From assembly GCF_009931435.1 (NCBI RefSeq), contig NZ_CP043414.1: 64,000 nucleotides of DNA, one strand, 5' to 3'. The translations under genes and the position numbers were made by a program. The DNA comes from Escherichia coli (lineage in GTDB: Bacteria > Pseudomonadota > Gammaproteobacteria > Enterobacterales > Enterobacteriaceae). The notes beneath the pieces were generated by a model. The model saw nothing but the letters and a program-made list of their open reading frames with translations. It was not told the DNA's origin and did no database searches. Below are positions 11,308-11,619 of this stretch, one piece after another (within the stretch, counting starts at the first letter, position 1; every line of letters begins with the position of its first letter).

Positions 11308-11619
11308 TTAGTTATATTCGATGTTCATTACAGCCAGCTTTTTCTGTTTATCAAGATACTGCACTTTTACTGAGGCTATTTGCGCGTTTTTGACATTGCC
11401 GCTCATTAACGCTTTGCTGGAATAGGTTCTGCCCGGAACAGAGCCATTCTGTGGGCAGTTCATTTCTACGGGTGATGACTGGGTGCTGACGTCACATGCC
11501 GGTTCCACAATTTGGCCATAAAAATGGATCACGCCCCCTTGCGCGGTGCTTCCTGCGATGGCAATAAAAGGAAAAAACAAACTGCCGAGCATAAGAGAGT
11601 TTAAAAAAGGTCTGAACAT
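11308..11619 (-). CDS. ymdA: Small secreted protein YmdA with fimbrial-subunit-like N-terminal region
   Basis: 103-aa ORF with signal peptide followed by GGVIHFYGQIVEPAC, resembling the mature N-terminus of chaperone-usher pilins. Confidence 0.7.
   Translation of the reverse strand: MFRPFLNSLMLGSLFFPFIAIAGSTAQGGVIHFYGQIVEPACDVSTQSSPVEMNCPQNGSVPGRTYSSKALMSGNVKNAQIASVKVQYLDKQKKLAVMNIEYN

Follow-up and report, generated by a model that had tools for sequence, protein, structure and literature searches.

YmdA of Escherichia coli, a half-size exported protein with a pilin-like donor-strand segment encoded beside the curli genes

The ymdA gene of Escherichia coli occupies positions 11308..11619 on the minus strand of the 64,000-nucleotide stretch of contig NZ_CP043414.1 analyzed here (hereafter the window), beside the curli genes, and its product can be compared with several described systems. 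FimA-type pilins (PF00419), including the gamma-fimbrial major subunits FimA, SfmA, BcfA and LpfA, have an N-terminal extension that serves as a donor strand, followed by an incomplete Ig-like body of approximately 140-160 residues with an acceptor groove. PapH (and, it has been proposed, FimI) is a pilus terminator or anchor, which ends fibre growth by giving a strand to the last subunit while being unable to receive one. CsgC is a periplasmic inhibitor of CsgA amyloid formation. Finally, ymdA itself belongs to the named core genes of E. coli, and its regulation has been studied in detail: it is the prototype of translational activation by CsrA, and FlhDC acts on it directly. It is a conserved and selected gene in a family of its own, and its product currently has no assigned biochemical role.

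A preliminary description of the window took ymdA for an orphan pilin-like gene, either the remnant of a degraded fimbrial operon or a small secreted protein co-opted near csgC. The comparisons reported here settle that ymdA is not a decaying pilin gene, that the pilin-derived part of its product is confined to the donor strand, and that this strand is the most conserved part of a family distributed across Enterobacterales.

Sequence, family and predicted fold of YmdA

On the basis of its sequence, the window open reading frame (ORF) corresponds to the already known E. coli K-12 gene ymdA (b1044), a member of the YmdA family (Pfam PF27184). The coding sequence (103 amino acids plus stop, with an ATG start) was taken from the ORF list, and identical DNA is annotated as ymdA in RefSeq E. 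coli genomes, under product names that vary between 'protein YmdA', 'YmdA family protein' and 'type 1 fimbrial protein'. PF27184 ('YmdA') is the precomputed label on all homologues and on a protein 96% identical to the window YmdA. A 547-bp segment containing ymdA is found at 95-100% identity in 5411 of 5426 complete E. coli genomes. The window allele, with the same range of identity to other E. coli copies, shows no difference of substance from the K-12 gene, and the CsrA-responsive leader hairpin (PMC7492729) is also present.

The product was accurately described as a 103-residue protein in which GGVIHFYGQIVEPAC comes after a signal peptide. Residues 1-22, MFRPFLNSLMLGSLFFPFIAIA (11554..11619, minus strand), were judged by inspection to contain the n-, h- and AXA-type c-regions of a Sec/signal peptidase I signal peptide, with no lipobox cysteine and a predicted cleavage site at AIA/GS. 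Homologues have an equivalent hydrophobic leader, with a small-x-small site 2-8 residues ahead of the GGVIHF motif. The protein was also rightly called short, since the mature form would have 81 residues, about half the approximately 160 of a pilin. It is highly probable that the product is functional and exported, has about 81 residues when mature, and belongs to a family found across Enterobacterales.

The similarity to pilins is restricted to the N-terminus. The pilin-type donor-strand (N-terminal extension, Nte) motif, GGVIHFYGQIVEPAC, comprises residues 28-42, ending at Cys42 (11494..11538, minus strand), and was assigned from PDB profile matches, hhalign alignments and column entropy. 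When the single YmdA sequence was compared with NCBIfam, the FimA, BcfA, LpfA and FimI equivalogs matched at residues 23-55 only, with FimA the best (E=1.6e-4); all NCBIfam pilin cut-offs were missed, the best pilin equivalog scoring 21.7 bits against a cut-off of 140. In a phmmer search of the PDB, the single sequence detected FimA (E=2.6e-3), whereas the top ten matches of a 68-member family profile were all chaperone-usher pilins (FimA of several species and PapA; best E=5.6e-6), with FimG and FimI among the weaker ones. All of the PDB pilin matches place YmdA mature residues 2-29 on pilin mature residues 3-32, which correspond to the donor strand and the first cysteine. An hhalign comparison with a profile of the 14 K-12 pilin paralogues (a search for FimA homologues gave near-identical FimA only) aligned YmdA 2-36 with FimA 3-37 (Prob 90.7%, E=1.3e-6), and its alternative alignments contained no second YmdA-pilin match and none that was C-terminal. 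With fifteen pilins as tblastn queries, the sole similarity in the window was that of SfmA residues 1-49 to ymdA itself (E=5.8e-5). No Pfam match to YmdA was found at E<=10, in a copy of Pfam lacking PF27184, and none of the 68 family members matched PF00419 at E<=1.

These alignments make it very likely that homology to FimA-type chaperone-usher pilins, in their N-terminal extension and first cysteine, covers mature residues 2-36 of YmdA. The N-terminal resemblance noted in the preliminary description is thus beyond chance by the NCBIfam, PDB and hhalign comparisons, but covers a short stretch. At the C-terminus, the penultimate tyrosine, which in pilins belongs to the F strand recognised by the chaperone, is invariant in all 68 family members and present in all 14 K-12 pilins. 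A position-specific scoring matrix of pilin C-termini gave YmdA 1.6 bits (p=0.002), as against 15-29 bits for real pilins, which is suggestive only. YmdA has in common with FimA-type pilins a Sec signal peptide, the N-terminal extension G-G-x-[IV]-H-F-x-G-x-[IV]-V-x-x-x-C with its conserved glycine and first cysteine, and the penultimate tyrosine. It differs from them in its mature length (81 versus about 160 residues), in the spacing of its cysteines (13 versus approximately 40 in FimA), and in never being encoded with a chaperone or usher in the loci examined. It is not a member of the pilin family: the donor strand is present, but the profile threshold is missed, and the fold and the operon context are both absent.

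An exhaustive profile search detected 103 cluster representatives at E<=1e-3, of which most of the full-length ones have 96-109 residues and cover profile positions ~3-81; a word-indexed homologue search returned Escherichia proteins only, all labelled PF27184. The family pattern consists of a signal peptide, GGVIHFxGxIVExPC, 12-13 variable residues, a cysteine, about 30 further variable residues, and a C-terminal a.v.m.Y[LI][DN]xxKxLA[VI]xx[VI]xY[RKNHQ]. The window YmdA aligns with the family from end to end, including all three conserved motifs. The donor-strand segment is the most conserved, with a mean column entropy of 1.27 bits compared to 2.2-3.1 elsewhere. Only four residues are invariant in 68 of 68 members, Gly13, Cys20, Cys33 and Tyr80 in mature numbering (Gly35, Cys42, Cys55 and Tyr102 of the precursor), and the invariant glycine aligns with a glycine in the donor strand of FimA. 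Within the donor strand, mature positions 7, 9, 11, 13, 15, 16 and 17 are conserved and positions 12, 14 and 18 are variable, an alternation expected of a strand that buries one of its faces.

Orthologous ORFs are intact, at 102-107 amino acids, in about 30 species. Ratios of nonsynonymous to synonymous substitution rates (dN/dS) for 13 lineage pairs range from 0.06 to 0.25, and ymdA is under purifying selection. The protein also evolves faster than its neighbours: between the window and two other Escherichia species, dN is 0.093-0.098 for ymdA and 0.002-0.031 for csgC, csgA, ymdB and clsC. The changes in ymdA cluster in residues 43-79, and there is hardly any variation in residues 80-103.

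Some database sequences depart from the family pattern. Five variants (P0017, P0023, P0035, P0052 and P0090) read ...FFLLLPSQEAARKG...YGQIVEPAC, an out-of-frame stretch between two homopolymer runs that then returns to frame. The matching region of the window (11530-11580) has T- and C-rich runs in the signal-peptide and Nte codons, and these variants are probably the result of homopolymer sequencing error, but may also reflect slippage. Truncated alleles also occur, such as an 89-residue form in Shigella dysenteriae (P0064).

The structure was predicted with AlphaFold2 (AF2). A model from a 7-sequence Escherichia alignment, which was too shallow (mean predicted local distance difference test score, pLDDT, of 51.6), was left out of the fold comparison; the monomer from a 68-sequence alignment reached a pLDDT of 83.2, with a predicted template modelling score (pTM) of 0.58. 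In the latter, mature residues 1-20 are devoid of regular secondary structure; the chain then continues with three short strands and a short helix, and ends in a beta-hairpin. The two invariant cysteines, Cys42 and Cys55 (C-x12-C; 11455..11496, minus strand), lie according to the family alignments and AF2 in a predicted short beta-hairpin, with strands at mature residues 21-23 and 29-32, and are presumably joined by a disulfide. The predicted C-terminal hairpin, IASVKVQY-LDKQKK-LAVMNIEY (11314..11379, minus strand; AF2 and Escherichia alignment), includes the invariant penultimate Tyr102, and both models give it strands at mature residues 59-66 and 74-80. Residues Q80-Y102 are invariant in 18 Escherichia sequences except at S83, V86 and L89.

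Neither a pilin fold nor an acceptor groove was detected in YmdA, and the fold is without known structural relatives. The Ig-like pilin fold for which a check had been proposed was absent from the AF2 model and from the results of fold searches, and there is no counterpart of the incomplete Ig-like body of 140-160 residues. Beyond the donor strand, the model very probably describes a compact beta structure of about 50 residues (the Cys-Cys hairpin, the short helix and the hairpin ending in Tyr-x) that is not the pilin Ig fold.

Genomic context across Enterobacterales

The window is an E. coli chromosomal segment with the gene order opgH, opgG, opgC, clsC, ymdB, ymdA, csgC, csgA, csgB and csgDEFG, in which csgC (11740-12072, minus strand) and ymdB (10680-11213, minus strand) are the neighbours of ymdA. 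When one genome of each species was scanned with a 10-sequence alignment and the strict pattern [QT]GGVIHFxG, 34 loci were obtained, to which others were added from metagenome and genome look-ups. Salmonella enterica subsp. enterica was outside the sample, and so strict a pattern makes the list of species a minimum.

All Enterobacteriaceae loci that have kept csgC have ymdA as the next gene downstream, on the same strand. This order was found in Escherichia, Citrobacter, Salmonella (arizonae and diarizonae), Enterobacter, Pluralibacter, Pseudocitrobacter, Dryocola and Trabulsiella. The gene after ymdA is ymdB, or clsC or opgC where ymdB or clsC has been lost. Such losses of ymdB (a macrodomain gene) or clsC have occurred independently (L020, L022-L024, L027, L030-L032, L038 and L042, the last without either gene), and ymdA remains in each case, so that the E. 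coli partnership of ymdA, ymdB and clsC in one operon is not conserved.

Intact ymdA is also found in genomes that lack curli genes. The csg locus is missing altogether from Superficieibacter sp. 1612_C1 (L035), and csgBAC and csgEFG have both been lost from Kluyvera cryocrescens (L038). In L035 (9221-10936), as in a 1.5-kb contig (L054), no csg gene is present between ycdZ and the intact ymdA, and in L038 (5756-10830) a csgD-like remnant is all that is left of csg beside the intact gene. Family members from Serratia, Xenorhabdus nematophila and one further assembly (L007) are found at a different locus, away from csg genes, and include tandem pairs in L007 (7373-7681 and 8001-8312), in Serratia silvae (L033; 9384-9677 and 10001-10288), and in X. 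nematophila FN667742 (L053) and another assembly (L052), both at 7399-7716 and 8001-8312. The pairs in L007, L052 and L053 adjoin an efp paralogue and an aromatic amino-acid permease gene, and no csg or fimbrial genes were found near any of the tandem pairs in these four loci.

The claim that no chaperone or usher gene is nearby holds for the entire window, in which tblastn with 6 K-12 chaperones and 6 ushers gave no match at E<=0.1. The same is true of 49 related loci (751 kb), where no chaperone or usher was found within ~9.5 kb of ymdA. The suggested search for a fimbrial operon at the syntenic site detected none in about 30 other species. At the far edges of two loci, Escherichia whittamii L012 (1-420) and L031 (3-152), there is a C-terminal usher fragment similar to YehB (55-58% identity), which is approximately 9.6 kb from ymdA, beyond ycdZ; no such edge fragment was detected in the other loci or in the window.

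In three Pseudocitrobacter loci (L027, L030 and L032; approximately 700-9700), the csg genes are rearranged and diverged, with csgF and csgB-like genes ahead of csgG and Csg proteins that are 34-75% identical. No csgA-like match passed the filter in these three loci, and ymdA still follows a csgC-like gene. Two loci carry Bacteroidota labels. The first (L026, CACSKA010000011.1, titled Chryseobacterium sp. 18061) has full Enterobacteriaceae csg-ymdA-ymdB-clsC-opg synteny and ~90% OpgG/OpgH identity, and the second (L043, titled Gelidibacter salicanalis) is a contig of 306 bp that matches the YmdA family in part. In both cases, contamination or mislabelling of the assembly is probable.

Regulation and reported phenotypes

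The ymdA gene is co-transcribed with ymdB-clsC from its own promoter, and not with csgBAC (PMC4183435). In chromatin immunoprecipitation sequencing, an FlhDC peak lies inside csgC, just upstream of the ymdA transcription start site, and ymdABC RNA falls from 219 to 2-3, or about 100-fold, in flhD or flhC deletion strains (PMC4183435). In the window, the promoter region is located within csgC at -300 to -221 from the ATG (11840..11919, minus strand; from the fusion boundaries in PMC7492729), and includes or adjoins the FlhDC-bound site. A consensus scan of this region found no convincing sigma-70 hexamers, and promoter and terminator scores were not above shuffled expectation; a terminator-like match inside the ORF (11530-11545) was dismissed as a chance match. 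In Salmonella Std-ON cells, ymdA falls along with the flagellar genes (PMC6173445). Motility is normal in a ymdA deletion strain (PMC4183435).

The 5' leader of about 217 nt (11620..11836, minus strand) overlaps the 3' end of csgC with its 5' part; its coordinates are derived from the ATG at 11619 and from the leader fusions of Renda et al. (2020), which span -217 to +4 (PMC7492729). CsrA binds two GGA sites in the leader and melts a hairpin that sequesters the Shine-Dalgarno (SD) sequence, activating translation 10-30-fold, and this is the strongest CsrA-mediated activation in the E. coli transcriptome (PMC7492729). The leader fold in the window is not unusually stable overall (z=-1.07), but the published SD-sequestering hairpin, CCUCAA...UUGAGG (11631..11655, minus strand), is still recovered in the minimum free energy and centroid folds of 11610-11720. 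Following the description in PMC7492729, the GGA at 11647-11649, within the hairpin, is presumed to be CsrA site BS2 and the upstream GGA at 11665-11667 to be BS1. In the window leader (11620-11710, minus strand), the 90 nt before the ATG contain five GGA motifs (-12, -28, -46, -68 and -87); four have been described in the K-12 leader, including a non-binding 'BS*' (PMC7492729). Taken together, transcription switched on by FlhDC and a hairpin opened by CsrA place the production of YmdA in motile planktonic cells, apart from the regulation of curli.

Overexpression of ymdA was reported by Kim & Kim (2017), as cited in PMC7492729, to lower biofilm approximately 5-fold and to change apramycin susceptibility 2-fold; according to the same citation, the 2-fold change in susceptibility accompanies knockout as well as overexpression. 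In Xenorhabdus griffiniae, both biofilm and competitive colonisation of the host are reduced when an annotated homologue of ymdA is overexpressed (bioRxiv 10.1101/2025.06.16.660008). Since X. nematophila carries true members of the YmdA family, this homologue is plausibly genuine.

Possible roles of YmdA

It is tentatively proposed that YmdA may be a periplasmic donor-strand decoy or terminator that blocks fimbrial polymerisation in motile cells. The exposed pilin-like strand of YmdA would occupy the acceptor groove of FimA-type subunits in the periplasm, either while these are bound to their chaperone or, in a growing fibre, at its basal subunit. YmdA itself lacks a pilin body and a groove, so the capped product could not be extended, and fimbrial polymerisation would be capped or diverted for as long as the cell is motile. 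Capping of this kind would account for the lower biofilm seen on overexpression and the slightly higher biofilm of the deletion strain, and the lack of regular secondary structure in mature residues 1-20 of the AF2 monomer means that this segment could act in trans. The proposal fits the invariant glycine, the alternating conservation, the modelled N-terminus, regulation that is inverse to that of adhesins, and the persistence of ymdA in lineages without curli. The logic would be similar to that of PapH and FimI, by analogy with the Pap and Fim systems, although those proteins are full-length pilins encoded within operons and delivered by a cognate chaperone, whereas YmdA is half-size, orphan and controlled by FlhDC and CsrA. 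If the decoy proposal is correct, YmdA would represent a post-translational brake on fimbriae, at the level of protein, in addition to the known transcriptional cross-talk between motility and adhesion, and would be a natural template for inhibitors of pilus assembly.

Several points weigh against a decoy. Conservation of the donor-strand segment would be explained just as well by an intramolecular role or by self-association. In the periplasm, donor-strand exchange is slow when uncatalysed, and canonical delivery to the usher needs a chaperone bound to the subunit groove, which YmdA appears to lack; the absence of an obvious route to the usher is a weak point of the proposal. The C-terminal likeness to the pilin F strand is weak (1.6 versus 15-29 bits), and the global confidence of the AF2 model is moderate (pTM 0.58). 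Finally, the biofilm phenotypes of ymdA are weak, and the 45% rise in biofilm produced by a clean deletion is not complemented in trans (PMC7492729).

It is likewise possible, and no more firmly held, that the function of YmdA is unrelated to adhesins. YmdA would then be a small periplasmic or secreted protein of the flagellar/Csr regulon, perhaps envelope-related and tied to YmdB and ClsC or to the apramycin phenotype, in which the pilin-like N-terminus serves only its own folding or oligomerisation. Co-transcription with ymdB and clsC (PMC4183435), the 2-fold change in apramycin susceptibility on both overexpression and knockout (as cited in PMC7492729), a fold without known structural relatives and the weakness of the biofilm effects would all be compatible with such a role. 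However, many lineages have independently lost ymdB or clsC and kept ymdA, which makes tight functional coupling unlikely, the deletion strain has no motility defect, and it would be left unexplained why the best-conserved segment is a pilin donor strand with an invariant glycine. If the decoy idea is wrong and ymdA is an ordinary conserved gene, the annotation 'type 1 fimbrial protein' is misleading.

A role in curli assembly is unlikely. YmdA would in this case act on CsgA or CsgB in the periplasm as an accessory factor, for example as a second anti-amyloid safeguard beside CsgC, which would explain why ymdA has stayed next to csgBAC. The adjacency of csgC and ymdA is kept in Enterobacteriaceae loci with csgC even where ymdB or clsC has been lost, and production of an inhibitor by motile cells would agree with curli and flagella being, as is known, inversely regulated. 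There is also a biofilm phenotype, and the possibility was raised by Renda et al. (PMC7492729). YmdA and CsgC are both small, exported and beta-rich proteins with a link to biofilm, encoded with conserved adjacency at the 3' end of the csgBAC cluster, but no sequence relationship was seen between them, and ymdA is controlled by FlhDC and CsrA rather than by the CsgD-dependent csgBAC promoter. Moreover, YmdA persists where csg genes are absent, as in the intact genes of Superficieibacter (L035) and Kluyvera (L038), and the Serratia and Xenorhabdus members are nowhere near csg genes. The gene has its own promoter and is transcribed with ymdB-clsC and not with csgBAC (PMC4183435), the conserved motif is of the chaperone-usher pilin type and not a curli one, and ymdB, clsC and the opg genes are equally syntenic without being curli genes. 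Linkage to the csg genes is therefore present, but neither dependence on curli genes nor shared expression with them was found.

Less probable still is an orphan minor fimbrial subunit, which would rely on the chaperone and usher of another locus (fim, sfm or others) and be built into the fibre as a structural adaptor or anchor. E. coli has many chaperone-usher systems that could serve YmdA, its donor-strand motif is closest to major subunits of the FimA, SfmA, BcfA and LpfA type, and the penultimate tyrosine, a C-terminal feature of pilins, is invariant in 68 of 68 members. Against such a role are the 81 residues of the mature protein, a cysteine pair 13 rather than about 40 residues apart, the lack of a detectable pilin fold or acceptor groove, and the failure to reach PF00419 or any NCBIfam pilin cut-off (21.7 versus 140 bits). 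Since a subunit without a groove can only be the last one added, this explanation collapses into the terminator version of the decoy proposal.

The idea that ymdA is what remains of a pilin gene, as a truncated pseudogene or a fragment, once chaperone, usher and other subunits had been lost, has next to no probability: the pilin homology of the N-terminal 35 mature residues, the half-pilin length, the window without chaperone or usher and the name 'type 1 fimbrial protein' sometimes given by the Prokaryotic Genome Annotation Pipeline (PGAP) would agree with it, but the conserved length of 96-109 residues, the end-to-end family alignment from Escherichia to Serratia and Xenorhabdus, purifying selection (dN/dS 0.06-0.25), presence in 5411 of 5426 E. 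coli genomes, dedicated FlhDC and CsrA control with measured translation (PMC4183435, PMC7492729), the syntenic site without a fimbrial operon in about 30 species, the lack of a detected pilin fold and the 0 of 68 members matching PF00419 do not. With its length conserved, its family aligned end to end, its sequence under purifying selection and its expression tightly regulated, the degraded-operon part of the preliminary description is not supported, there being neither a pilin fold nor a syntenic fimbrial operon, and as an account of the present gene it is effectively refuted; an ancient origin of ymdA from a pilin gene is possible. The other part, that of a small secreted protein settled by csgC, is closer to the evidence.

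A second small protein has the layout of YmdA. YehE (b2112; L055, 6516-6797, minus strand) is a 93-residue protein of the DUF2574 family (PF10836) with a YmdA-like arrangement of signal peptide and pilin-Nte-like segment, TLAINGRISPPTC. This segment has the form TLxINGRISPPTC, the C-x12-C pair has the spacing of YmdA, and the C-terminal hairpin ends in RYD, with a penultimate tyrosine as in YmdA. Four of the 68 YmdA-family members match PF10836 weakly (best 17.7 bits, E=0.0033, for a gathering score of 27.5 bits), the window YmdA does not match it, and a search of the PDB with the YehE profile found no pilin. An hhalign comparison of the YmdA and YehE families gave a Prob of 56% (E=1.1e-4), which makes the relationship a lead and not evidence of homology. 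From these sequence features, YmdA and YehE may form a 'mini-pilin' class. A broader version of the decoy proposal, in which YmdA, retaining nothing of a pilin but the donor strand, is a natural decoy of the flagellar/Csr regulon that caps the groove of FimA-type subunits and shuts down chaperone-usher polymerisation post-translationally in motile cells, and with YehE/DUF2574 might define half-size 'mini-pilins' that regulate fibre assembly instead of building fibres, is rather doubtful. The two genes differ in setting: ymdA has no chaperone-usher operon beside it, whereas yehE lies immediately upstream of the complete operon yehDCBA.

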